Below, piece by piece: positions 6,910 through 32,828 of a stretch of 64,000 bases of DNA (the first letter of the stretch is position 1; each line of letters starts with the position of its first letter). The DNA is taken from NCBI RefSeq assembly GCF_988243305.1, contig NZ_OZ547136.1; one strand, given 5' to 3'. The notes beneath the pieces are model-generated. The model did not search any database. It saw nothing but the letters and a program-made list of their open reading frames with translations, and was not told the origin of the DNA. A program made the translations under genes and the position numbers.

Positions 6910-7920
6910 TTATAACGTCACTCCGCCTTTTAGTGGATTCAGAGCGACGGCATTTTGCAGATAGTCAGGCGCAAGGTGCGCATAGGCCATCGTCTGCTGA
7001 ATGCTCGCATGTCCCAGAATCTGTTGCAGTGCGATTATATTGCCCCCATTCATCATGAAATGGCTTGCGAATGTATGCCGCAGGATGTGGGTTGCCTGAT
7101 TGGGTGGTATATCAGGTTTCACTCTGCGTAAAATCCCGCAAAATTTCTCATAATCAACTTTGAATAATTTGGCGCTGGCCTCCTCTTTAACTTTTTTCTC
7201 CAGTTCCTCAGAAATCGGCACGGTTCGCTTTTTACCGTTTTTGGTTTTCAGGAAGGTAACCCTGCAATTTGTAATCTGTGCTGGTTTTAGCGTGGCAACT
7301 TCCGTCCATCTTCCTCCGGTGCTCAGACATAAAAGCGCGACAAGTAAGTCATCACCAGCCAAAACATTTAACAGTTTTTCGATTTCTGCTTTTTCCAGGA
7401 ACGTCATTTCAGGGTTGGCCTCCGCCAGTGGCGGCAGTCCGTGAATTGGGTGTTGCCCGGAAAATTCATCCAATTGAATTAATTTTGTGAACATGCCGGA
7501 TAATCGGTACATGTCACGGTTTATCGTTGCGGCACTGATACCATCACGTAGTCGCATGGAACGATAATCCATCAAAGCCCTTTTGCTCATCCTGCTCACT
7601 GGTATATCACCTATGCCGCTGATGGTTTTGAGTAGATGATTAAACTCTTTTGTTCCATGCTCGTGGTTTTGCCCGTGATATTTCCACCAGATGTCCAGCA
7701 ACTCACTCAAAGTCCGGCGGTCTGCTCGCTGGCCTCCCCATTCTTTCTGACTGGCATTGGCGATTGTGTATCGCTCAAATGCTAGTGCTTCAGCTTTTCT
7801 TTCGAATTTCCTGCGGATGCGTTTTCCGTCGCGACCGCGAGGTCTAATGTCCACTTCATAGCGACCATCATCGAGCTTCTTAATTGCCATAAGAAAGCCC
7901 TCCGGCGCTGTATTCACCAT
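6910..7920 (-). CDS. int: P2-type tyrosine integrase
   Basis: 336 aa, adjacent to attL, C-terminal R..H..R..Y catalytic-domain pattern (HILRHTFASH...AYAHL). Confidence 0.9.
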   Translation of the reverse strand: MVNTAPEGFLMAIKKLDDGRYEVDIRPRGRDGKRIRRKFERKAEALAFERYTIANASQKEWGGQRADRRTLSELLDIWWKYHGQNHEHGTKEFNHLLKTISGIGDIPVSRMSKRALMDYRSMRLRDGISAATINRDMYRLSGMFTKLIQLDEFSGQHPIHGLPPLAEANPEMTFLEKAEIEKLLNVLAGDDLLVALLCLSTGGRWTEVATLKPAQITNCRVTFLKTKNGKKRTVPISEELEKKVKEEASAKLFKVDYEKFCGILRRVKPDIPPNQATHILRHTFASHFMMNGGNIIALQQILGHASIQQTMAYAHLAPDYLQNAVALNPLKGGVTL

Positions 7921-8264: not shown

Positions 8265-8308
8265 CCTATATAGGGACTAAATTCCCTCAAAACTGGAACC
8301 TATATAGG
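8265..8308 (+). promoter_or_regulatory. Candidate early operator: two CCTATATAGG palindromic 10-mers in C/cox divergent region
   Basis: cctatatagg at 8265..8274 and 8299..8308; TTGACA at 8254..8259. Confidence 0.35.
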
Positions 8309-8374
8309 TTCCATTGATTTGAGAATAAACCAGCATCTAAACGGTTTTGAGTGGTTTAGAAAGGGCTGGATCCT

Positions 8375-13822: not shown

Positions 13823-14308
13823 ATGAGCTATGCAGCTAAAAAACTGCTTGACCGCTATTGGGATCGCCGACTACCTGTCGATCCGTTTAAGCTTGCTAAA
13901 GCGTGGGGTGCTCGTGTTGAAGCACTTGAGGAATCGGCTTATAACAACGATGGGTTAAGCGGTCTGGCTGTCATCAAAAAGGGTGTCCATAGGATTTATT
14001 TTGATTCTAGTGAACATTCTAATCGTCAACGTTTTACTGTTGCACACGAGTTAGGTCATCATGTGCTGGGGCATACCCAGGACGGAGAGTACCATCGGGA
14101 TAATGTCGGGAATTATTCAACAGGTGCTCGTGATTACCGTGAGGTTGAAGCAAACAAGTTTGCTGCTGAGTTGTTAATGCCTGAGTCTGCTATACGTCAA
14201 TTGGTATCCAGAGAAGGTATTGATAGCACTTTGAGATTAGCAAGCATCTTTAATGTATCAGAAGCCGCTATGCATTGGCGCTTAAAGAGCTTAGGAATGG
14301 CTTATTAA
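13823..14308 (+). CDS. ImmA/IrrE-family HEXXH zinc metallopeptidase-like protein (161 aa)
   Basis: HELGHHVLGH plus downstream E (FAAELLMPE); AGGAGG SD; promoter-like TTGACA at 13761; AT-rich cargo. Confidence 0.75.
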   Translation: MSYAAKKLLDRYWDRRLPVDPFKLAKAWGARVEALEESAYNNDGLSGLAVIKKGVHRIYFDSSEHSNRQRFTVAHELGHHVLGHTQDGEYHRDNVGNYSTGARDYREVEANKFAAELLMPESAIRQLVSREGIDSTLRLASIFNVSEAAMHWRLKSLGMAY

Positions 14309-14374
14309 TTAGCCTTTAACTTTTAACCTGTTTAAAATCACCTTTACGTTTGTACATGTAAGGGTGATTTTTTT

Positions 14375-14974
14375 ATGGCTGATATTGATTTATCTGGACA
14401 GTCCCCAGAGCAAGGAACCACTCCTAAGGGCGATTTAGATCCTGATATCCTTATAAGGCGAGATAGACGGGATGGTATAGAGCGTAGAAGTATGCGATTA
14501 GTGCTCTCTGCCGTTGTGCTTTGTTTTGCTTGTACATTTCTATGGCAGGGGCTTAACTTTGCTTTGGCTGTTGGAAATGGCTTGCTGGAAGCGAAAAGCA
14601 GTATTGCCGCAGCGATAACACAAAAAGTAGATACACAAACTTGTGTTTCAGCAGAAAAATGTTCTGCTTTATCTTCGGATCCGAAGATGGCTGATGAGAG
14701 GATAACACCATCTTCAGACACTAATAAAGTTAGAAAATCTATTTCTGGTTTATCCACCGATTGGTTATCGGCCAGTTCTCTAATAGCTATTGTTGCATTC
14801 ATCCTTGGTGTGGGTTTAACTTTGCTTTTGACTCTTCTTAAATCAGCATTTCAACACCCGACAGATAAAGACTTTAGAACAAAGTCGACATCTAATACTA
14901 TTGAGTTGGCCACGCCAATCAGTGAATTAATAATTGGTGTTCTGAATATAATTAAAGACAAACTATCTAAGTAA
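14375..14974 (+). CDS. Hypothetical membrane protein, two predicted TM helices (199 aa)
   Basis: Hydrophobic segments ~res 40-66 and 130-155; start codon sits in T-run of upstream terminator hairpin. Confidence 0.6.
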   Translation: MADIDLSGQSPEQGTTPKGDLDPDILIRRDRRDGIERRSMRLVLSAVVLCFACTFLWQGLNFALAVGNGLLEAKSSIAAAITQKVDTQTCVSAEKCSALSSDPKMADERITPSSDTNKVRKSISGLSTDWLSASSLIAIVAFILGVGLTLLLTLLKSAFQHPTDKDFRTKSTSNTIELATPISELIIGVLNIIKDKLSK

Positions 14975-15056
14975 AGCATTAGTTGTGATTTTTTATTGGT
15001 TTTAGTGATAATACATCTCCAGTACTTATTGTTACTGGAGAGTATTTTTAGTCGTT

Positions 15057-15998
15057 TTATATTTTTAATGTTAGTGAATGATATTCACGAGAGTTCACGT
15101 TCGATGTGATGTAATCGGGGGCGTTAACACCAAGAATCGCAACGAGTAATCGGCAAATTAAAGCCTGCATTTGTTGTAATATGTCATCTCCATATTGATA
15201 ATTGTTAATAGTGGTAAAGCCAAGTGGTTGACCATGAAACATAGCTTCATGAAAGTTTTCATTGCGGATGTTTGTAATGTTTTTTTTACCTGTAACCCAT
15301 GATGGTCGTGGTATTCCATAAGTTTTGCAGATCCACTTCAAGCGCCTGGAGTGATTTAGAGTCTTTTCTGTACACTTGTTCTTTTCTGCCCATGTTAAAG
15401 CAAAGCAACTATCCAGTGCCATATAAAGATACTGGAATTTTTCGAAGCTAAGGTATTGTGGGTTTTGGGATAAAAATAGTGCATGCACTATTGCTGCTAT
15501 ATTTATTGGTGCGTGTTTGGTTTTTGTCTCGCTAGACATGTATTTGAGTGCTAATTCTATAACCTCTTTTTCAGAGCACTTGACCAGAATAAAGTCAGTT
15601 AATTTGCTGGGTTTTATTGGGGTTGCGTCTAAAAAACCGGCATCAGTAGTTGTTAATCTTATCCCTTTGAAAAAAGACAGACACCACACAGCAAAATTGA
15701 GAGTTTCTAGTGAAGATGTATTTTTTAATTTTAGTGAGTGTGTTTTGGGTAAGCCAAATACTCGTTGGCTAAAAGGCATTGTGGATATGCCTCCATTGAG
15801 GTTATATACTTCTTGGTTTCCTGGGTATATCCAACCGTTAATAACATTTCTGTGATTGTTTATAAGATTTGTTTTTTCCGCTAGACCGGGTAAAGTAAGT
15901 AAAGAAAAATCATCAGTTTCAACGTTAACTTCTACTGGATAGTATCCAAACTCAGCTTCAATATCATTGGATTGCTGTTCGTCAACTTTACCTTGCAT
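15057..15998 (-). CDS. Hypothetical protein, 313 aa, unknown function (candidate phage-exclusion effector)
   Basis: Long ORF in AT-rich DNA (sampled lines roughly 35-40% GC vs >50% flanks), GGAG SD, convergent with membrane-protein gene; R-x4-H at ~245-250. Confidence 0.65.
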   Translation of the reverse strand: MQGKVDEQQSNDIEAEFGYYPVEVNVETDDFSLLTLPGLAEKTNLINNHRNVINGWIYPGNQEVYNLNGGISTMPFSQRVFGLPKTHSLKLKNTSSLETLNFAVWCLSFFKGIRLTTTDAGFLDATPIKPSKLTDFILVKCSEKEVIELALKYMSSETKTKHAPINIAAIVHALFLSQNPQYLSFEKFQYLYMALDSCFALTWAEKNKCTEKTLNHSRRLKWICKTYGIPRPSWVTGKKNITNIRNENFHEAMFHGQPLGFTTINNYQYGDDILQQMQALICRLLVAILGVNAPDYITSNVNSREYHSLTLKI

Positions 15999-17459: not shown

Positions 17460-19231
17460 TAGTAAAACTCCAGAATGGTGGATGTCAGCGGGGTGCTGAT
17501 ACCGGCGGTGAGTGGCTCATTTAACAGGGCGTGCATGGTCGCCCAGGCGAGATCGGCGTGGCTGGCTTCCTCGCTGCGGCTGGCCTCATAGGTGGCGCTG
17601 CGTCCGCTGCTGGTCATGGTCTTGCGGATAGCCATAAACGAGCTGGTGATGTCGGTGGCGCTGACGTCATATTCCAGACAGCCACGGCGAATAACGTCTT
17701 TTGCCTTGAGCACCATTGCGGTTTTCATTTCCGGCGTGTAGCGGATATCGCGTGCGGCGGGATAGAACGAGCGAACGAGCTGGAACACGCCGACACCGAG
17801 GCCGGTGGCATCAATTCCGATGTATTCGACGTTGTATTTTTCGGTGAGTTTGCGGATGGATTCAGCCTGGGTGGCAAAGTCCATGCCTTTCCACTGGTGA
17901 CGCTCAAGTATTCTGAATTTGCCACCGGCCACCACCGGCGGTGCCAGCACCACGCATCCGGCACTGTCGCCACGGTGTGACGGGTCGTAACCAATCCAGA
18001 CCGGGCGGGAGCCGAACGGATTCGCGGCAAACGGCGCATAGTCTTCCCATTCTTCCAGCGTGTCGACCATGCAGCGTTGCAGCTCCTCGAACGGGAACAC
18101 CGACGCCTTGTCGTCAACAAATTCACACATGAACAGGTTTTTAAAATCGTCGGCGCTGTTTTCGCGTTTAAGCTGCTCAATGTCGAACAGCGTGCAGCCA
18201 CCTTTCAGGGCGTCCTCAATGGTGACAATCTGCCGCCACTGACCGTCCGCACAGAGAAGCCCACCGGCAAGAGCGTTATGACTGACGTCGATTTCCACGC
18301 GTTCGGCGGCGCTGGCGCGTCCCCGGTTGAACAGTTCACCCGACCAGAACGGGTAGGCGTCGTGCGCCAGCGTGGACGGGGTGGAGAAATAGGTCGAGCG
18401 CAGGTGACTCTGTGAGGCCATACCTGATGCCACCTTACGCAGTACCTGAAAATTCGGTATCCAGAAAATCTCGTCGACGTACAGGTCGCCGTTATGGCTC
18501 TGCGCGGTGTTGGAGTTGGTGCCGAGAAAAATCAGTTTTGCGCCGTTATTGCCCAGGACAATTGGGTCACCGGTCAGGTCAACGTCAACCAGCCGGGCAA
18601 AGGCGATGATGTATTCGCGGAACACATACGCCTGCGTTTTACTGGCCGACAGAAAAATCTGGTTATGACCGGTTTTCAGGGCGCGCAGCAGCGCCTCGCG
18701 GGAAAAATAAAACGTCGCGCCAATCTGGCGGGATTTCAGGATATCGCGGATGCGGTGCTCAAGCCCTGCGCGATACCAGTGCAACTGATATTCGAAAGAC
18801 TGCTCAAAGAAAATCTGCTCCAGCTTTTCGATGGCCTCGTCACTGAAAAAATTCTTTTTCGGTTTGCGACGCCCGCCTTTGTTGCGGTTAGCGACGTTCG
18901 GATTAAAGTCTGCCTCGTTGCCGGTCTGACTGTAACGGTTGACCCGTGCCAGTCGTTCAATCTGGCGTCCGAGCAGGTCAATTTCCTTGAAGTCACCGCC
19001 GGTTTTCTGCGGTTTGATGATGAGCTGGGTCAGCCGCGCTTCCAGACTCATTTCGACACGGCTGATGGGGGCAACGCTGTCCCAGCCGTCGCGCTGTTTC
19101 CAGCTCTGCACCGTCGGGCGTTTCATCTGCAACATGGCGGCAATCTGCGGCACGGAAAATCCCTGCCAGTACAGCAGCGCCGCCTGACGACGCGGGTCGT
19201 GTAAAAGAGTGGTGTCTGTGGTGATGGTCAT
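17459..19231 (-). CDS. Terminase large subunit (P2 gpP)
   Basis: 590 aa from ATG at 19231 (MTITTDTT...); ORF-track frame extends to 19261. Confidence 0.9.
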   Translation of the reverse strand: MTITTDTTLLHDPRRQAALLYWQGFSVPQIAAMLQMKRPTVQSWKQRDGWDSVAPISRVEMSLEARLTQLIIKPQKTGGDFKEIDLLGRQIERLARVNRYSQTGNEADFNPNVANRNKGGRRKPKKNFFSDEAIEKLEQIFFEQSFEYQLHWYRAGLEHRIRDILKSRQIGATFYFSREALLRALKTGHNQIFLSASKTQAYVFREYIIAFARLVDVDLTGDPIVLGNNGAKLIFLGTNSNTAQSHNGDLYVDEIFWIPNFQVLRKVASGMASQSHLRSTYFSTPSTLAHDAYPFWSGELFNRGRASAAERVEIDVSHNALAGGLLCADGQWRQIVTIEDALKGGCTLFDIEQLKRENSADDFKNLFMCEFVDDKASVFPFEELQRCMVDTLEEWEDYAPFAANPFGSRPVWIGYDPSHRGDSAGCVVLAPPVVAGGKFRILERHQWKGMDFATQAESIRKLTEKYNVEYIGIDATGLGVGVFQLVRSFYPAARDIRYTPEMKTAMVLKAKDVIRRGCLEYDVSATDITSSFMAIRKTMTSSGRSATYEASRSEEASHADLAWATMHALLNEPLTAGISTPLTSTILEFY

Positions 19232-21394: not shown

Positions 21395-22138
21395 ATGACG
21401 AGTCCCGCACAGCGCCACATGATGCGGGTCTCGGCAGCGATGACCGCGCAGCGGGAAGCCGCCCCGCTGCGACATGCAACTGTCTATGAGCAGATGCTGG
21501 TTAAGCTCGCCGCAGACCAGCGCACACTGAAAGCGATTTATTCAAAAGAGCTGAAGGCCGCGAAAAAACGCGAACTGCTGCCGTTCTGGTTGCCGTGGGT
21601 GAACGGCGTGCTGGAGCAGGGCAAAGGTGCACAGGATGACATTCTGATGACGGTCATGCTGTGGCGTCTGGATACCGGCGATATTGCCGGTGCGCTGGAG
21701 ATTGCCCGTTATGCCCTGAAGTACGGTCTGACCATGCCGGGTAAACACCGCCGTACCCCGCCGTACATGTTCACCGAGGAGGTAGCGCTCGCGGCCATGC
21801 GCGCTCACGCTGCCGGTGAGTCTGTGGATACCCGCCTGCTGACGGAGACCCTTGAACTGACCGCCACGGCTGACATGCCTGATGAAGTGCGCGCAAAGCT
21901 GCACAAAATCACCGGTCTGTTTCTGCGTGACGGTGGTGATGCCGCCGGTGCGCTGGCGCACCTGCAACGTGCGACACAGCTCGACTGTCAGGCAGGCGTC
22001 AAAAAAGAGATTGAACGACTGGAGCGGGAGCTGAAACCGAAGCCGGAGCCGCAGCCAAAAGCGGTCACCCGCGCCCTGCGTAAGACCCGGAGCGTGACAC
22101 CGGCAAAACGTGGACGCCCGAAAAAGAAAGCCAGTTAA
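21395..22138 (+). CDS. Terminase small/endonuclease subunit (P2 gpM)
   Basis: 247 aa, basic C-terminus. Confidence 0.85.
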   Translation: MTSPAQRHMMRVSAAMTAQREAAPLRHATVYEQMLVKLAADQRTLKAIYSKELKAAKKRELLPFWLPWVNGVLEQGKGAQDDILMTVMLWRLDTGDIAGALEIARYALKYGLTMPGKHRRTPPYMFTEEVALAAMRAHAAGESVDTRLLTETLELTATADMPDEVRAKLHKITGLFLRDGGDAAGALAHLQRATQLDCQAGVKKEIERLERELKPKPEPQPKAVTRALRKTRSVTPAKRGRPKKKAS

Positions 22139-27564: not shown

Positions 27565-28168
27565 TTCGCGCCTGCTGCCGACTGGCTCATCACCGCTTGA
27601 AGTCGCCGCCGCAAAAGCCTGTGCAGAAATTGAAAAAACGCCGGTCAGTATTCGTGAGCTGTGGAACCCGGATACCTGTCCGGCAAATCTGCTGCCGTGG
27701 CTGGCGTGGTCATTTTCGGTTGACCGCTGGGATGATAAGTGGCCGGAAGCGACAAAACGCGCTGTTATCCGCGATGCGTATTTCATTCACTGCCATAAGG
27801 GCACTATAGGCGCAATCCGTCGTGTGGTGGAGCCGCTCGGCTATCTGATTGAGGTGAGGGAGTGGTGGCAACTCAATGAGGAGCCGGGGACGTTCCGCAT
27901 CGTTGTTGGCGTGCTTGAGCAGGGTATTACCGAGGAAATGTATCAGGAGCTGGAGCGCCTCGTTGCTGATGCAAAACCTGCAAGCCGCCATCTGACGGGA
28001 CTGGCTATCAGTTTAAGTACAACCGGCAACATTTTTGCCGGTGCAGGATGCTATCACGGTGACGCCCTGACGGTTTATCCCTACACCCCGGAGGCCATTA
28101 TTGTCGGAGGGGATTATTTCCCGGCCTCGGCCATTCATTTAATTGATAACCTGAGAGTAAACGCATGA
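27557..28168 (+). CDS. Baseplate protein (P2 gpI)
   Basis: 203 aa. Confidence 0.8.
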   Translation: MSDSRLLPTGSSPLEVAAAKACAEIEKTPVSIRELWNPDTCPANLLPWLAWSFSVDRWDDKWPEATKRAVIRDAYFIHCHKGTIGAIRRVVEPLGYLIEVREWWQLNEEPGTFRIVVGVLEQGITEEMYQELERLVADAKPASRHLTGLAISLSTTGNIFAGAGCYHGDALTVYPYTPEAIIVGGDYFPASAIHLIDNLRVNA

Positions 28169-29529
28169 CAGTGAAATACTACGCCATTCTGACTATTCAG
28201 GGCGCAGCACGGCTGGCTAACGCGACGATGCTCGGCAGTAAGCTGAATCTGACGCAAATGGCCGTTGGTGATGCGAATGGTGTCTTGCCGACACCAGACC
28301 CGGCACAGACAAAACTGATTAACCAGAAACGCATTGCACCGCTGAATCTTCTTAGTGTTGACCCGAACAACCAGAGCCAGATTATTGCGGAGCAAATCAT
28401 CCCTGAGAGCGAGGGCGGATTCTGGATCCGTGAGATTGGGCTTTATGATGATGAAGGCGTACTCATTGCGGTGGCGAACTGCCCGGAAACGTACAAACCG
28501 CAGTTGCAGGAAGGCAGCGGTCGTACCCAGACTATCCGCATGATTCTGGTTGTCACGAATACCGAAGCCATCACGCTGAAAATCGACCCGTCGGTGGTAC
28601 TGGCGACCCGTAAATACGTGGATGATGAAGTCCTGGAATTAAAGCTGTATGTGGATGACCAGATGAGAAACCACATTGCCGCACAGGATCCTCATACCCA
28701 GTATGCGCAGAAACATAATCCGACATTTACCGGAGAACCAAAAGCGCCGACGCCTGCCGCAGGAAATAACACCACGCGGATTGCGACCACTGAGTTTGTT
28801 CAGGCCGCTATTACCGCTCTGATTAACGGTGCGCCAGCCACACTGGACACACTGAAAGAAATTGCCGCGGCCATTAACAATGACCCGAAATTCAGCACCA
28901 CCATTAACAATGCGCTGTCAGGTAAGCAGCCACTGGATGAGACGCTGACTCATTTGAGTGGAAAGGATGTAGCTGGTCTTCTCGCATACCTTGGTTTGGG
29001 AGAAGGTTCGGCATTACCCGTTGGCGTGCCTGTTCCGTGGCCTTCCGCCACTCCGCCAACAGGCTGGCTGAAATGCAACGGTGCCGCTTTTTCTGCTGAA
29101 GAATACCCGGAACTGGCAAAGGCTTATCCGACAAATAAATTGCCTGATTTACGTGGTGAGTTTATTCGTGGCTGGGATGACGGGCGTGGTGTGGATGCGG
29201 GACGTGCCTTGCTAAGTCTTCAGGATGACTCTTTTGAAGCGCACAGGCATGAGTCCTTTTTTTACGCGGGTATTTCTCGCAATGAAATACCATTAAAAAA
29301 TCTTCCAAGTTCAGACGAGATGCTGACTTTAAGTTCTACAACTAATGCCTTGTCCCCGGACGGTATTGATGCCACTAATTCGTTAATTGGTAATGATGAT
29401 TACAACTGTCTGATTGAAGGAAATAAAAATAACAAACGAACAGCGACGGGGTTGAGTACCAGTATTGTCGGTGCAGCAGAGACACGCCCACGTAATATTT
29501 CATTTAATTACATTGTGAGGGCTGCATGA
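28165..29529 (+). CDS. Tail fibre protein (gpH-like), constant N-terminus + currently expressed variable C-terminus
   Basis: 454 aa; contains inversion crossover site at 28991..29004. Confidence 0.85.
   Translation: MTVKYYAILTIQGAARLANATMLGSKLNLTQMAVGDANGVLPTPDPAQTKLINQKRIAPLNLLSVDPNNQSQIIAEQIIPESEGGFWIREIGLYDDEGVLIAVANCPETYKPQLQEGSGRTQTIRMILVVTNTEAITLKIDPSVVLATRKYVDDEVLELKLYVDDQMRNHIAAQDPHTQYAQKHNPTFTGEPKAPTPAAGNNTTRIATTEFVQAAITALINGAPATLDTLKEIAAAINNDPKFSTTINNALSGKQPLDETLTHLSGKDVAGLLAYLGLGEGSALPVGVPVPWPSATPPTGWLKCNGAAFSAEEYPELAKAYPTNKLPDLRGEFIRGWDDGRGVDAGRALLSLQDDSFEAHRHESFFYAGISRNEIPLKNLPSSDEMLTLSSTTNALSPDGIDATNSLIGNDDYNCLIEGNKNNKRTATGLSTSIVGAAETRPRNISFNYIVRAA
28991..29004 (+). repeat. Inversion crossover site, left (ttggtttgggagaa)
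   Basis: 14-bp perfect inverted repeat with 30904..30917; Hin/Gin-site-like AAACC...GGTTT core. Confidence 0.7.
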
Positions 29530-30131
29530 TGTATAACGCCATCTTGAATAGTAAACTTATTGCCACAAAGGCAGGAGAGATTACCGTTTATAACTATGAC
29601 AGTGAGACACGGGAGTATATTTCTGCATCAACTGAATATCTTGCTGTGGGTGTCGGTATCCCTGCATATTCCTGTTTAGATGCTCCTGGCACACATAAGG
29701 CTGGTTATGCAATCTGCCGTTCGGCAGATTTAAACTCATGGGAATATGTGCCAGACCATCGCGGTGAAATCATCTATAGCACCGAAACAGGAGAATCGAA
29801 AGAAATCACAGCTCCGGGTGATTATCCTGAAAATACAACCACTATCGCCCCGTTAACGCCATACGATGAATGGGATGGTGAGAAATGGGTAACAGATACT
29901 GTGGCACAGCATAGCGCCGCAGTAGGCGCGGCAGAAGCACAGCGCCAGTCACTGATTGATGCAGCAATGGCTTCCATTAGTCTGATTCAGCTGAAATTAC
30001 AGGCCGGACGGAAGTTGACGCAGGCAGAAACAACCAGCCTTAACGCTGTGCTGGATTACATTGACGCGGTGACGGCAACTGATACCAGCACCGCGCCTGA
30101 TGTCATCTGGCCTGAACTGCCGGAGGCGTAG
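29526..30131 (+). CDS. Tail fibre assembly chaperone (gpG-like)
   Basis: 201 aa following H. Confidence 0.8.
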   Translation: MMYNAILNSKLIATKAGEITVYNYDSETREYISASTEYLAVGVGIPAYSCLDAPGTHKAGYAICRSADLNSWEYVPDHRGEIIYSTETGESKEITAPGDYPENTTTIAPLTPYDEWDGEKWVTDTVAQHSAAVGAAEAQRQSLIDAAMASISLIQLKLQAGRKLTQAETTSLNAVLDYIDAVTATDTSTAPDVIWPELPEA

Positions 30132-30543
30132 GCCATTCAATATCTGGCGCACCGGAAGTATCGACCAGCTCCAGTGCGTCCAGATAATCCAGCCACAAAT
30201 TATATTGCGCCAGTTCCTCACCTTTCAGACGACCAATAGCCGCTTTACCAGGCCATTGTTTACTGTTCATGTATTCGTTGGCCTGGTTAATCAATTGCTG
30301 TTTTTCCAGTTCGGCTGCAGCAATCTGTTCCTCATGTGTTGGTGGTGGAATTTCAGACCATGCAGGAAAACCATTTTCTCCAGCGATGCGGATTTTCCCT
30401 TCCGGCGGTAATCCGGAAAACTCAATATACACCTGCTCGTCAACTTCAACAGCATCATCTGGCCATGATTCAGCTTGAGTGTAATCCTCTTTCATCTCCA
30501 GCGGATAGAAAGAGTTTGTAGTCGCGGAATATATATAATTCAT
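30103..30543 (-). CDS. Alternative tail fibre assembly chaperone (G') in invertible segment
   Basis: 146 aa, C-terminus resembles that of G, convergent and overlapping. Confidence 0.7.
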   Translation of the reverse strand: MNYIYSATTNSFYPLEMKEDYTQAESWPDDAVEVDEQVYIEFSGLPPEGKIRIAGENGFPAWSEIPPPTHEEQIAAAELEKQQLINQANEYMNSKQWPGKAAIGRLKGEELAQYNLWLDYLDALELVDTSGAPDIEWPTPPAVQAR

Positions 30544-30564
30544 TTCTCATTCCATATAGCTAAA

Positions 30565-30917
30565 TTAACAGCCTAACGCTAAAAATGAAGCGCCGAGACC
30601 TGGAGTACTGGCTCTGGATATAAATTTAACCGGGTCGGGACTAAAACCTGCACAGGCAATATAACCAACAGCCCCGCTATCTGGTGTGTAGTCTTGTGAG
30701 ACCAAAACACGCAGACATCTGTTTGGAAATGCAATCGGGAAATGGGTTACTACATCCTGTGCAATGCCTGGTGCGCCGATTGAGCCCCACTGAAGAATAA
30801 AACCTGATGGTAATTTTTGATATCCAGTACCTGAAACAGAAAGCGTGAAGCTACCCATATCAGGTATCTGATTCGCCCCTGTCCCTACATTCCTTTTAGC
30901 CGCTTCTCCCAAACCAA
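30565..30917 (-). CDS. Alternative tail-fibre C-terminal cassette (H' variable part), silent in this orientation
   Basis: Reads [14 protein letters not shown]... in same frame as H across the crossover repeat; upstream in-frame stop at 30967..30969. Confidence 0.7.
30904..30917 (-). repeat. Inversion crossover site, right
   Basis: ttctcccaaaccaacgtttatgaaaa resembles cix/gix/hix sites. Confidence 0.7.
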
Positions 30918-30984
30918 CGTTTATGAAAATGCAGAGATAACGGGCAACTGGCATCATCTCCGGTTTTTATTCAGGGGGATGCTC

Positions 30985-31578
30985 ATGCTTATTGGCTATG
31001 TACGCGTGTCAACAAATGACCAGAACACGGAATTGCAGCGTAACGCGCTGGAGTGCGCAGGATGCGAGCGGATTTTTGAGGATAAAATCAGCGGCACGAA
31101 GTCCGACCGACCGGGACTGAAAAAACTGCTCAGAACATTATCATCAGGTGACACTCTGGTAGTCTGGAAGCTGGACCGGCTGGGGCGTAGTATGCGGCAT
31201 CTGGTCATTCTGGTTGAGGAGCTGCGCGAACGCGGCGTTAATTTTCGCAGCCTGACAGATGCTATTGATACCAGCACGCCGATGGGGCGTTTTTTCTTTC
31301 ATGTGATGGGTGCCCTGGCTGAAATGGAACGAGAACTCATTGTCGAGCGGACTCGCGCCGGACTGGAAGCGGCCAGAGCTAAAGGTCGTATTGGTGGCAG
31401 ACGTCCGAAGCTCACCGCGAGTGAGTGGGAACAGGCAGGACGGTTGCTGGTTGCGGGTGAATCACGTCAACGCGTGGCGCTGATTTTTGATATTGGCCTG
31501 TCCACGCTCTATAAAAAATTCCCCTCATCAGCGGCAAAGAATAAATTGTGTCATCCCTTAGCCAACCGGGACAAATAG
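30985..31578 (+). CDS. Serine DNA invertase (Hin/Gin/Cin/Pin family)
   Basis: MLIGYVRVSTNDQ catalytic Ser motif, C-terminal HTH; adjacent to invertible segment. Confidence 0.9.
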   Translation: MLIGYVRVSTNDQNTELQRNALECAGCERIFEDKISGTKSDRPGLKKLLRTLSSGDTLVVWKLDRLGRSMRHLVILVEELRERGVNFRSLTDAIDTSTPMGRFFFHVMGALAEMERELIVERTRAGLEAARAKGRIGGRRPKLTASEWEQAGRLLVAGESRQRVALIFDIGLSTLYKKFPSSAAKNKLCHPLANRDK

Positions 31579-31637
31579 CCTGACATCTCCGGCACAACTG
31601 AAAATATCACTCACCCATTAACCACGGAGTTAAACGG

Positions 31638-32828
31638 ATGAGTGACTATCATCACGGCGTGCAGGTGCTGGAGATTAACGACGGCACCCGTGTCATTTCC
31701 ACCGTATCCACTGCCATTGTTGGCATGGTCTGCACGGCCAGCGATGCGGATGCGGAAACCTTCCCCCTCAATAAACCGGTGCTGATTACCAATGTGCAGA
31801 GTGCAATTGCAAAGGCCGGTAAAAAAGGCACGCTGGCGGCATCGTTGCAGGCTATCGCCGACCAGTCAAAACCGGTCACCGTTGTCGTGCGTGTGGAAGA
31901 CGGCACCGGCGACGACGAGGAAACAAAACTCGCGCAGACCGTTTCCAATATCATCGGCACCACCGACGAAAACGGTCAGTACACCGGACTGAAAGCCCTG
32001 CTGGCGGCGGAGTCTGTTACCGGTGTTAAACCGCGTATTCTCGGCGTGCCGGGACTGGACACCAAAGAGGTGGCTGTTGCACTGGCATCAGTCTGTCAGA
32101 AGCTGCGCGCTTTCGGGTATATCAGCGCATGGGGCTGTAAAACCATTTCCGAGGTGAAAGCCTACCGCCAGAATTTCAGCCAGCGTGAGCTGATGGTCAT
32201 CTGGCCGGATTTCCTCGCATGGGATACGGTCACCAGTACAACCGCCACCGCGTATGCCACCGCCCGTGCGCTGGGTCTGCGCGCTAAAATCGACCAGGAG
32301 CAGGGCTGGCATAAAACGCTGTCCAACGTCGGGGTAAACGGTGTTACCGGCATCAGCGCCTCTGTATTCTGGGATTTGCAGGAGTCCGGCACCGATGCTG
32401 ACCTGCTTAACGAGTCAGGCGTCACTACGCTGATTCGCCGCGACGGTTTCCGATTCTGGGGTAACCGTACCTGCTCTGATGACCCGCTGTTCCTCTTTGA
32501 AAACTACACCCGCACCGCGCAGGTGCTGGCCGACACGATGGCTGAGGCGCACATGTGGGCGGTGGACAAGCCCATCACCGCAACGCTGATTCGCGACATC
32601 GTTGACGGCATCAATGCCAAATTCCGTGAGCTGAAAACAAACGGCTATATCGTGGATGCGACCTGCTGGTTCAGCGAAGAATCCAACGATGCGGAAACCC
32701 TCAAGGCCGGAAAACTGTATATCGACTACGACTATACTCCGGTGCCTCCTCTCGAAAACCTGACCCTGCGCCAGCGTATTACCGATAAATACCTGGCAAA
32801 TCTGGTCACCTCGGTTAACAGCAATTAA
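31638..32828 (+). CDS. Tail sheath protein (P2 gpFI)
   Basis: 396 aa. Confidence 0.9.
   Translation: MSDYHHGVQVLEINDGTRVISTVSTAIVGMVCTASDADAETFPLNKPVLITNVQSAIAKAGKKGTLAASLQAIADQSKPVTVVVRVEDGTGDDEETKLAQTVSNIIGTTDENGQYTGLKALLAAESVTGVKPRILGVPGLDTKEVAVALASVCQKLRAFGYISAWGCKTISEVKAYRQNFSQRELMVIWPDFLAWDTVTSTTATAYATARALGLRAKIDQEQGWHKTLSNVGVNGVTGISASVFWDLQESGTDADLLNESGVTTLIRRDGFRFWGNRTCSDDPLFLFENYTRTAQVLADTMAEAHMWAVDKPITATLIRDIVDGINAKFRELKTNGYIVDATCWFSEESNDAETLKAGKLYIDYDYTPVPPLENLTLRQRITDKYLANLVTSVNSN

Follow-up and report, generated by a model that had tools for sequence, protein, structure and literature searches.

The window analysed here, a stretch of 64,000 nucleotides of an Escherichia coli chromosome, carries a P2-like prophage, about 31.5 kb long and apparently complete, which lies between the host genes cpxP and fieF and encodes a tyrosine integrase at 6910-7920. 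Over 24.9 kb of its length, 97% matches phage MET_P1_103_31 with 97.9% identity, and 72-83% of the same 24.9 kb matches other listed P2-like phage records at 96-98%. The gene order V-W-J-I-H...FI-FII-E-T that marks P2-like phages (Peduovirus) is annotated in a near-identical prophage. Rfam and tRNA scans found nothing in the prophage. The region around the tail-fibre gene H contains the following features:

28165..29529, plus strand: tail-fibre gene H in its current assembly, 454 aa (ORF; best PHROG phrog_327, tail protein, E 1e-208)
28165..29004, plus strand: constant part of H, residues 1-280, ending in ...AYLGLGE and retained in both orientations (current and in-silico flipped translations are identical up to GLGE)
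28979..29004: left 26-bp recombination site, pixL-like, TTCTCGCATACC-TT-GGTTTGGGAGAA, an arm of the inverted repeat; crossover expected at the central TT, 28991-28992
29005..29529, plus strand: current variable C-terminus of H, 174 aa, of the tail-collar domain type (Pfam Collar PF07484, E 1e-14)
29526..30131, plus strand: chaperone for the current C-terminus, TfaE-like, 201 aa (phrog_105, tail fiber assembly, E 4e-97)
30103..30543, minus strand: second chaperone, for the alternative C-terminus, 146 aa (phrog_188, tail fiber assembly protein, E 1e-66)
30565..30903, minus strand: alternative fibre C-terminus cassette, currently unfused, 112 aa after GLGE (Pfam Gp53-like_C PF21882, E 9e-14; phrog_2557 and phrog_1396)
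30904..30929: right 26-bp recombination site, TTCTCCCAAACC-AA-CGTTTATGAAAA, the other arm of the inverted repeat; crossover expected at the central AA, 30916-30917
30918..30957, minus strand: predicted short leader ORF outside the invertible segment, which supplies the invertase-facing cassette with an ATG of its own and is equivalent to the beginning of e14 'stfE'
30985..31578, plus strand: serine DNA invertase of the Pin/Gin family, 197 aa (phrog_125, DNA invertase)
31003..31074: putative recombinational enhancer (Fis-dependent), lying inside the invertase gene at its 5' end and placed by its equivalence in position to the annotated P1 cin enhancer (nt 19-90)
31547..31637, plus strand: P2 late promoter pF region (activator-binding site and FI leader), from alignment with P2 and pro483 and from the activator-binding site and transcription start annotated in P2

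The ORF list bears out the layout given in a preliminary description of this DNA, with H and its chaperone gene followed by an inverted alternative cassette with a chaperone gene of its own and, directly outside, the invertase gene. The segment of about 1.9 kb said to be bracketed by the repeats agrees with the site coordinates (about 1.92 kb) and holds two convergent cassettes, each made up of a fibre C-terminus and its chaperone gene, and the two chaperone genes overlap by 29 bp. The H protein has a Phage_tail_fib domain (Pfam) at residues 1-150 and a Collar domain at residues 287-334, and its N-terminal part of about 260 aa is 42% identical to P2 gpH. The current C-terminus shares 54% identity with the C-terminal part of e14 StfE and the chaperone encoded behind it 90% identity with e14 TfaE, while residues 55-146 of the second chaperone are 61% identical to e14 TfaP. 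In Pfam, one C-terminus falls under Collar and the other under Gp53-like_C, two different families, and a Tfa-type chaperone follows each of them. An NCBIfam search assigned no family to the fibre and chaperone proteins. Both fibre frames read GLGE across the repeat, and in-silico inversion yielded an uninterrupted, in-frame fibre of 392 aa, against 454 aa at present, with residues 1-280 in common, just as the preliminary description had anticipated. Since the left site lies within H at the GLGE codons, a constant N-terminus of 280 residues is joined to one of two C-termini.

The repeat had been described as perfect over 14 bp (28991..29004 and 30904..30917); its location was correct, but it is perfect over 15 bp (TTGGTTTGGGAGAAG at 28991-29005, with the complement at 30903-30917) and is embedded in a 27-nt inverted repeat with 81% complementarity (28979-29005 and 30903-30929). 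The functional sites are the 26-bp elements at 28979-29004 and 30904-30929, not the perfect repeat as such. Both are imperfect dyads of two 12-bp half-sites around a 2-bp core (12+2+12), lie in inverted orientation and have identical cores, and the same layout is found in Mu gix and e14 pix. When read as its reverse complement, the right site is TTTTCATAAACG-TT-GGTTTGGGAGAA. With crossover expected at the central TT/AA, the perfect repeat is made up of the crossover dinucleotide and the inner half-site. The right site is identical to e14 pixR, and the published repeat of the e14 P segment, TTGGTTTGGGAGAAGG, is equal to our sequence over the 15 bp common to both arms and, in the left arm, at 16 of 16 bases. 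Of the earlier wording that the sites resemble those of Hin and Gin, the Gin-type layout stood; Hin as closest relative was ruled out, because sites and invertase are nearest to those of e14 Pin and then to Gin.

The invertase aligns over its full length with the Gin structures 3UJ3 and 4M6F (E 1.7e-94; 78% identity to Gin/3UJ3), and also matches the DNA-binding domain of Hin (1HCR); it shares 86% identity with e14 PinE and 78% with Mu Gin. The earlier assignment as a serine invertase gene directly outside the segment is confirmed by both ORF and homology. In an NCBIfam search, serine-recombinase families appeared below threshold only. The protein has the two parts of a small serine recombinase, an N-terminal catalytic domain with Ser9 (Gin numbering, i.e. 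Hin minus 1) and a C-terminal helix-turn-helix domain, and in the same numbering carries S9, R42, K46, K47, R50, M114, Q150, R153 and L154. An inactivating mutation of the catalytic serine, named beforehand as an observation that would speak against a switch, was looked for and Ser9 proved intact. Contacts to Fis and the enhancer have been assigned to basic residues of helix B (Hin 47, 48 and 51) and to Hin Q151, R154 and L155, which have been described as unique to Fis/enhancer-dependent invertases (PMC3798978). All of the corresponding residues (K46, K47, R50, Q150, R153 and L154) are kept in the window's invertase. M114 is wild type here, and valine occupies this position in the aligned sequences of the Gin crystal structures. 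In Gin, the change of M114 to valine gives Fis independence. The switch in the window is predicted to depend on Fis.

In Gin, Cin and Hin, an enhancer with two Fis sites acts in cis from the 5' region of the invertase gene. The candidate enhancer in the window is identical to its counterparts at 56 of 72 positions for P1, 53 of 72 for Mu and 61 of 72 for e14, an excess over the rest of the gene that is small, and it contains the invariant blocks TCAACAAATGA and GCAGGATG near its two ends. Among 73 unique invertase genes, synonymous divergence was low in codons 1-12 and 25-30 and equally low in codons 67-72 and 109-114, and pairwise synonymous-site tests of the candidate against cin, gin and pinE were not distinctive. 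A crude promoter scan of positions 28000-31800 found no sigma-70-like promoter for the invertase in the 55-bp spacer, and no minus-strand promoter-like site upstream of the leader ORF near 30958-31200. A weak terminator-like hairpin at 30946-30965 is apparently not kept as a hairpin in e14, where the spacer was judged by eye. Homology to the P2 backbone resumes in the pF region (31547-31637), within the last invertase codons.

The window is a single sequence in which only one orientation of its own copy is visible. At a coverage of at least 80%, the arrangement of the window was colinear in 35 complete E. coli genomes and the in-silico flipped arrangement in 34, the best of which covered 100% of the query with 97.7% identity, so that the two orientations are near 1:1 among genomes with the same cassette pair. 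A comparison of the sibling isolates GPEC1209 and GPEC1210 over 9,044 bp shows a single difference: the 1,840 bp between the repeats are exact reverse complements of each other, with no mismatch. The sites of the window, the left one included, and its spacer are identical to those of the two siblings, and the invertases agree at 194 of 198 translated positions (197 residues plus stop), the four substitutions being non-catalytic. Inversion of near-identical prophages at exactly the sites of the window is thus observed. Assemblies of this locus that disagree in orientation do so for biological reasons and not through error. Among the IMG/VR loci whose right junction is intact, the invertase has either cassette type as its neighbour, the one in 25 and the other in 22 of 63 loci. 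At least nine junction types occur among related loci, some of which have three sites and four variants. For two P2-like prophages of the enteropathogenic strain EPEC E2348/69, inversion has been shown by population sequencing and PCR (PMC4272514). In contrast to the intact sites of the window, the right sites of five related loci (L012, L029, L031, L074 and L082) are decayed; these loci are presumably locked, and loss of function does occur in this family of switches.

Two readings deny the window a working switch. One holds that the inverted repeat arose by chance and has no role in recombination. A perfect 15-bp inverted repeat within 5 kb was indeed present at least once in 9 of 30 shuffled versions of the 64-kb window, i.e. 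in about a third, and is common enough that significance has to come from context and not from length; repeat length was accordingly rejected as a statistical argument, also in view of an unrelated perfect 15-bp inverted pair in host genes at 54865/57683. The 15-mer itself occurs at only two places in the window even when two mismatches are allowed (chance expectation 0.07 matches). The context speaks against chance, as the sequence agrees with that known for e14 pix, the right site has a constant spacing to a gene for a Gin/Pin-family invertase, its 5' end preceding the start codon by 80-81 bp in nearly all related loci, the two fibre frames are cut at the same codons and the repeat is the exact boundary of natural inversions. 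The flipped genomes and the exact inversion between GPEC1209 and GPEC1210 refute this reading, and we give it practically no credence. According to the other, the module is a relic, intact in sequence, whose copy in the window has lost the ability to invert, for instance through lack of invertase expression. The single visible orientation, the lack of a clear invertase promoter in the scan and the existence of locked or decayed relatives would fit. However, sites and spacer are those of a prophage that flipped between siblings, with an invertase differing at only the four non-catalytic residues, both orientations are about equally frequent among genomes with the same cassette pair, and such sites can be acted on in trans by further invertases of the Pin family that E. 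coli carries (PMC12529663). We regard a frozen copy as highly improbable.

A further reading concedes inversion and asks whom it serves. The switch might also, or even mainly, benefit the lysogen: translation of the invertase-facing cassette would start at a conserved spacer ATG (30957 or 30954 on the minus strand) and give a receptor-binding domain joined to a conserved leader of 18 codons, and this free protein, made with its chaperone in the lysogen, would mask receptors against competing phages. Inversion would then be two-sided, exchanging the virion tip and at the same time toggling the domain behind the leader. Of this leader, the first 13-14 codons with the ATG fall within the spacer that adjoins the invertase gene (30918-30957, minus strand), and the present product would be a Gp53-like protein of 130 aa, analogous to e14 StfE2. 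Such a role is suggested by an ORF (30565-30957, minus strand) that begins outside the invertible segment and whose equivalent in near-identical prophages is annotated in RefSeq as a gp53-like domain protein, and by a leader that has an open frame in 61 of the 63 related loci and also occurs in Mu. In e14, StfE2 starts in the same way and combines an equivalent leader with a Gp53-like domain, and it was reported to block T2 adsorption after inversion of the P segment (PMC12529663). On the other hand, the leader residues vary freely and two loci have a stop in the leader; the related loci are close relatives, so that the open frame may be mere inheritance; the invariant TGGCATCAT, which contains the ATG, could belong to the expression signals of the invertase; and the crude scan gave no promoter-like site for this strand near 30958-31200. 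Moreover, the Gp53-like part is only 25% identical to its StfP/StfE2 counterpart, and the e14 evidence comes largely from over-production from a plasmid. A function in the lysogen therefore appears unlikely to us, although with the conserved start in front of the 'silent' cassette and the 2025 report on e14 StfE2 it is directly testable. If true, P2-like prophages would carry a phase-variable module for defence against superinfection, concealed in a cassette that was supposed to be silent.

The interpretation we favour with high confidence is a functional site-specific inversion switch of the Pin/Gin type in the tail-fibre operon of the P2-like prophage. The reading as a tail-fibre switch already proposed in the preliminary description is supported, since all elements are intact and near-identical copies exist in both orientations. 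The anatomy of the locus, the compatibility of its frames and the intactness of the invertase are directly visible; that the copy in the window is active follows almost certainly, if indirectly, from comparison with its relatives. In the proposed mechanism the invertase would bind the two inverted 26-bp sites and, with Fis on the enhancer that lies inside the invertase gene at the 5' end, cleave both at the central TT/AA, and strand rotation followed by religation would invert the segment. The present state would provide the collar-type C-terminus followed by the TfaE-like chaperone, the other state the Gp53-like C-terminus followed by its own chaperone. Virions would be built only with the cassette that faces the late operon promoter, and a population of lysogens would consequently release two kinds of phage with different receptor specificity. 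The two forms would then differ in host range, for which the different Pfam families of their C-termini give an indirect indication. For annotation, this means that the 130-aa 'gp53-like' ORF and the 454-aa 'phage tail protein' represent two states of one switchable gene system, and the locus is useful for host-range prediction in P2-like phages. It is a clean and intact case of textbook bet-hedging, in which a temperate phage produces particles with two receptor specificities, and adds little beyond that.

The switch is an ordinary, previously described system, and its closest relative is the Pin/P-segment system of e14 in E. coli K-12 (stfP-tfaP / tfaE-stfE, pixL/pixR, PinE). The right sites of the two are identical, the left sites differ at 3 of 26 positions, and the GLGE junction is common to both. 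Invertase, TfaE-like chaperone and StfE-like C-terminus are 86%, 90% and 54% identical, respectively. In e14 as here, the convergent chaperone genes share 29 bp, and transcription of the invertase gene, whose start lies 80-81 bp downstream of the 5' end of the site, leads away from the segment. The segment comprises 1.8 kb in e14 and 1.9 kb here. The element e14 is lambdoid and defective, and its fibre gene is truncated, whereas in the window the module is fused to the full-length N-terminus of a P2-type gpH and the P2-like prophage around it appears complete; the Gp53-like cassettes are distant (25% identity), and the tail of the invertase is 13 residues longer than in e14, reading into the P2 pF promoter region. 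The G segment of Mu likewise combines a constant fibre part with two C-termini, each with a chaperone (S/U and S'/U'), an invertase that lies outside and is transcribed away, and 26-bp sites of the same layout; Gin is 78% identical. It differs in segment length (3 kb), in the core dinucleotide (TC instead of TT), in the junction motif LGLQET, in its unrelated fibre C-termini and in the phage backbone. In P1, Cin belongs to the same invertase family, and the stretch equivalent to the enhancer annotated in cin (nt 19-90) is 78% identical; however, the C segment is 4.2 kb long, cin reads towards the segment, and cixL lies directly at the 3' end of cin. Classic P2 has no such switch, as had been pointed out earlier: reference P2 has fun(Z), and not an invertase gene, between G and FI. 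Many P2-like phages and prophages, pro483 and KC618326 among them, nevertheless have exactly this module in the same place. In the EPEC E2348/69 prophages, pro483, 'Escherichia phage P2' KC618326 and Salmonella phage MET_P1_103_31, an annotated DNA invertase is found in the same order between the fibre chaperone gene and FI, and these loci differ from that in the window in cassette content only.

The window is part of an E. coli chromosome, its flank matching many E. coli genomes at 99.9% identity, and carries a P2-like prophage of ~31.5 kb inserted between cpxP and fieF. A deposited phage genome record matches 97% of 24.9 kb of the prophage at 97.9% identity. The gene layout given in the preliminary description (fibre gene H, two chaperones, an inverted cassette and an invertase outside the repeat) was found as described, within the following set of features:

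6910-7920: tyrosine integrase, in the prophage
13823-15998 (within): CapP-like/ImmA-type metalloprotease, 161 aa (PADLOC capP, E 1e-30; phrog_87)
13823-15998 (within): ORF without assigned function, 199 aa (phrog_8096)
13823-15998 (within), minus strand: ORF without assigned function, 313 aa (phrog_5937)
28165-29529, plus strand: fibre gene H, 454 aa, with a Phage_tail_fib N-terminus and a Collar domain at residues 287-334
29526-30131, plus strand: chaperone, 201 aa (phrog_105), 90% identical to TfaE of the K-12 element e14
30103-30543, minus strand: second chaperone, 146 aa (phrog_188), convergent
30565-30903, minus strand: alternative C-terminal cassette (Gp53-like_C)
30918-30957, minus strand: short leader with its ATG at 30957, preceding the cassette that faces the invertase
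30985-31578, plus strand: serine invertase, 197 aa, beyond the repeat; sheath gene FI comes next, at 31638

The three ORFs at 13823-15998 form a variable region with the replication gene on one side and the capsid genes on the other, the position of tin/old in P2, and may be defence or regulatory cargo. Elsewhere in the prophage, an inverted repeat of 21 nt (90%) with arms 3 kb apart lies in the capsid/terminase region (18943-18963 and 22008-22028) and a 27-nt palindrome (8281-8326) near the immunity region.

The inverted repeat bracketing the cassettes had been described as perfect over 14 bp. Its presence and position were borne out but its length was not, since TTGGTTTGGGAGAAG at 28991-29005 and its complement at 30903-30917 form a perfect repeat of 15 bp, nested in a larger one of 27 nt with 81% complementarity. 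No other copy of the 15-mer was found in the window with two mismatches tolerated. Shuffling of the 64-kb sequence gave a 15-bp inverted repeat inside 5 kb in 9 of 30 cases, and unrelated host genes hold a second perfect 15-bp pair (54865-54879 and 57683-57697) that is probably due to chance. As repeats of this kind are not unusual by chance in a sequence of 64 kb, the case for a switch is made by context and not by repeat length. The repeat is read as GLGE in both fibre frames, and in silico inversion of 29006-30902 yielded an uninterrupted 392-aa fibre which has residues 1-280 in common with the present one, in agreement with the alternative in-frame fibre proposed earlier. An internal inverted repeat of 18 nt (30050-30067 and 30176-30193) reflects homology between the chaperones at their C-terminal ends, LDYIDA in one and LDYLDA in the other. 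Their convergent genes overlap by 29 bp (30103-30131), as do tfaP and tfaE in e14.

The repeat arms are the inner halves of two 26-bp sites, each with a 12+2+12 layout. The left site reads TTCTCGCATACC-TT-GGTTTGGGAGAA and the right site, as reverse complement, TTTTCATAAACG-TT-GGTTTGGGAGAA; Mu gix, TTATCCAAAACC-TC-GGTTTACAGGAA, has the same layout. The two sites have identical inner half-sites but different outer ones, the pattern expected if inner halves are exchanged. Recombinases of this family cleave at the central dinucleotide, and we accordingly map the crossover to 28991-28992 and 30916-30917. Of the two sites, the right one has exactly the sequence of e14 pixR and the left one differs from pixL at three positions, and the published repeat of the e14 P segment, TTGGTTTGGGAGAAGG, is the same sequence as the window repeat (PMC12529663).

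The invertase aligned over its full length with structures of Gin (78% identity, E 1.7e-94), is 86% identical to e14 PinE and has both Ser9 and Arg42. Also present are K46, K47, R50 and Q150/R153/L154, residues of helix B and the DNA-binding domain that are reported to be conserved only in Fis/enhancer-dependent invertases (PMC3798978). A putative enhancer at 31003-31074 is the counterpart of the one annotated inside P1 cin (56/72 identical, with an invariant block close to either end); tests for additional constraint on this stretch gave no distinctive signal. The P2 backbone is again recognisable by homology from ~31547, in the last ~10 invertase codons and at the annotated activator (Ogr) binding site of the late promoter pF, so that the inversion module directly adjoins the FI promoter. 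Because the activator-site homology upstream of FI takes in the end of the gene with its stop codon (31547-31578), the right edge of the module falls inside the C-terminal tail of the invertase, a tail that is 13 residues shorter in PinE.

When 5,426 complete E. coli genomes were surveyed with 28600-31700 as query (colinear at at least 80% coverage), the window arrangement was present in 35 and the flipped one in 34, the best match to the flipped query having 100% query coverage and 97.7% identity. In the sibling isolates GPEC1209 and GPEC1210, the prophage occupies the same chromosomal position. Over 9,044 bp their loci are identical but for the 1,840 bp enclosed by the repeats, which are exact reverse complements with 0 mismatches. 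The window has the same two sites and the same spacer, over its entire length to the invertase start, and its invertase differs from theirs in four residues, all non-catalytic. Flipping is shown by relatives and not by the window itself, which is a single sequence. Near-identical copies of the fibre switch (3.1-kb query) were also seen in E. coli assemblies on records of 66-216 kb, presumably plasmids (NZ_CP018956.1, NZ_CP146689.1, NZ_CP104682.1 and NZ_CP146687.1); in strain MS 198-1, one such copy has the window orientation and the chromosomal copy is flipped.

In nearly all of 79 IMG/VR loci with related invertases, the distance from the 5' end of the right site to the downstream invertase start is 80-81 bp; the left site is found 1.1-3.3 kb upstream. 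The two cassette types of the window face the invertase in 25 and 22 of the 63 loci with an intact right junction, and related viral contigs have at least 9 C-terminal junction types after GLGE. Loci with a decayed or truncated right site (L012, L029, L031, L074, L082) are presumably locked switches, and those in which half-sites match at three or more places upstream of the invertase gene (L051, L077, L085) are probably of a multi-cassette, shufflon-like type.

The start of the leader is outside the invertible segment, and its frame continues into the cassette next to the invertase, whichever of the two this is. Of 63 related loci, 61 keep the leader open, but its residues are not conserved across them, and a scan for a promoter of this ORF found none; the invariant TGGCATCAT may instead be a signal for invertase expression. 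Mu has a counterpart of the leader, and in e14 it is the start of stfE (stfE/StfE2) by K-12 annotation. According to a 2025 paper (PMC12529663), StfE2, in which the leader is fused to a Gp53-like domain, prevents adsorption of T2 once e14 has inverted. The present orientation of the window encodes a structural analogue of 130 aa, leader plus Gp53-like, with only 25% identity between the two Gp53-like parts. A defence role for this protein in the window is possible but unlikely.

We conclude with high confidence that the locus is a Pin-type invertible host-range switch, the activity of this copy and its effect on host range being predicted. Both orientations in relatives, the intact sites and the intact Ser9 support the switch originally proposed. 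It belongs with the Gin/Cin/Pin/Hin-type systems, the e14 P segment being closest. Classic P2 has fun(Z) at the position of the module, confirming that it is without the switch. P2 gpH (L088; no invertase) contains EYLGLQETVN, the junction motif of the Mu gix crossover, at residues ~369-400, which looks like the remnant of an earlier crossover site within the fibre gene. P2-like phages such as pro483 and KC618326 carry the same module, annotated, at the same position. Fels-2 is likewise P2-like. Its Fin is another published prophage-borne invertase of the Gin/Pin kind (cited in PMC12529663). In EPEC E2348/69, whole-genome sequencing and PCR demonstrated inversion in two P2-like prophages, of which one has four variants and three sites (PMC4272514). 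Since the module is annotated in P2-like phages and its inversion is published, the finding is already known; neither the type of switch nor its position is novel.
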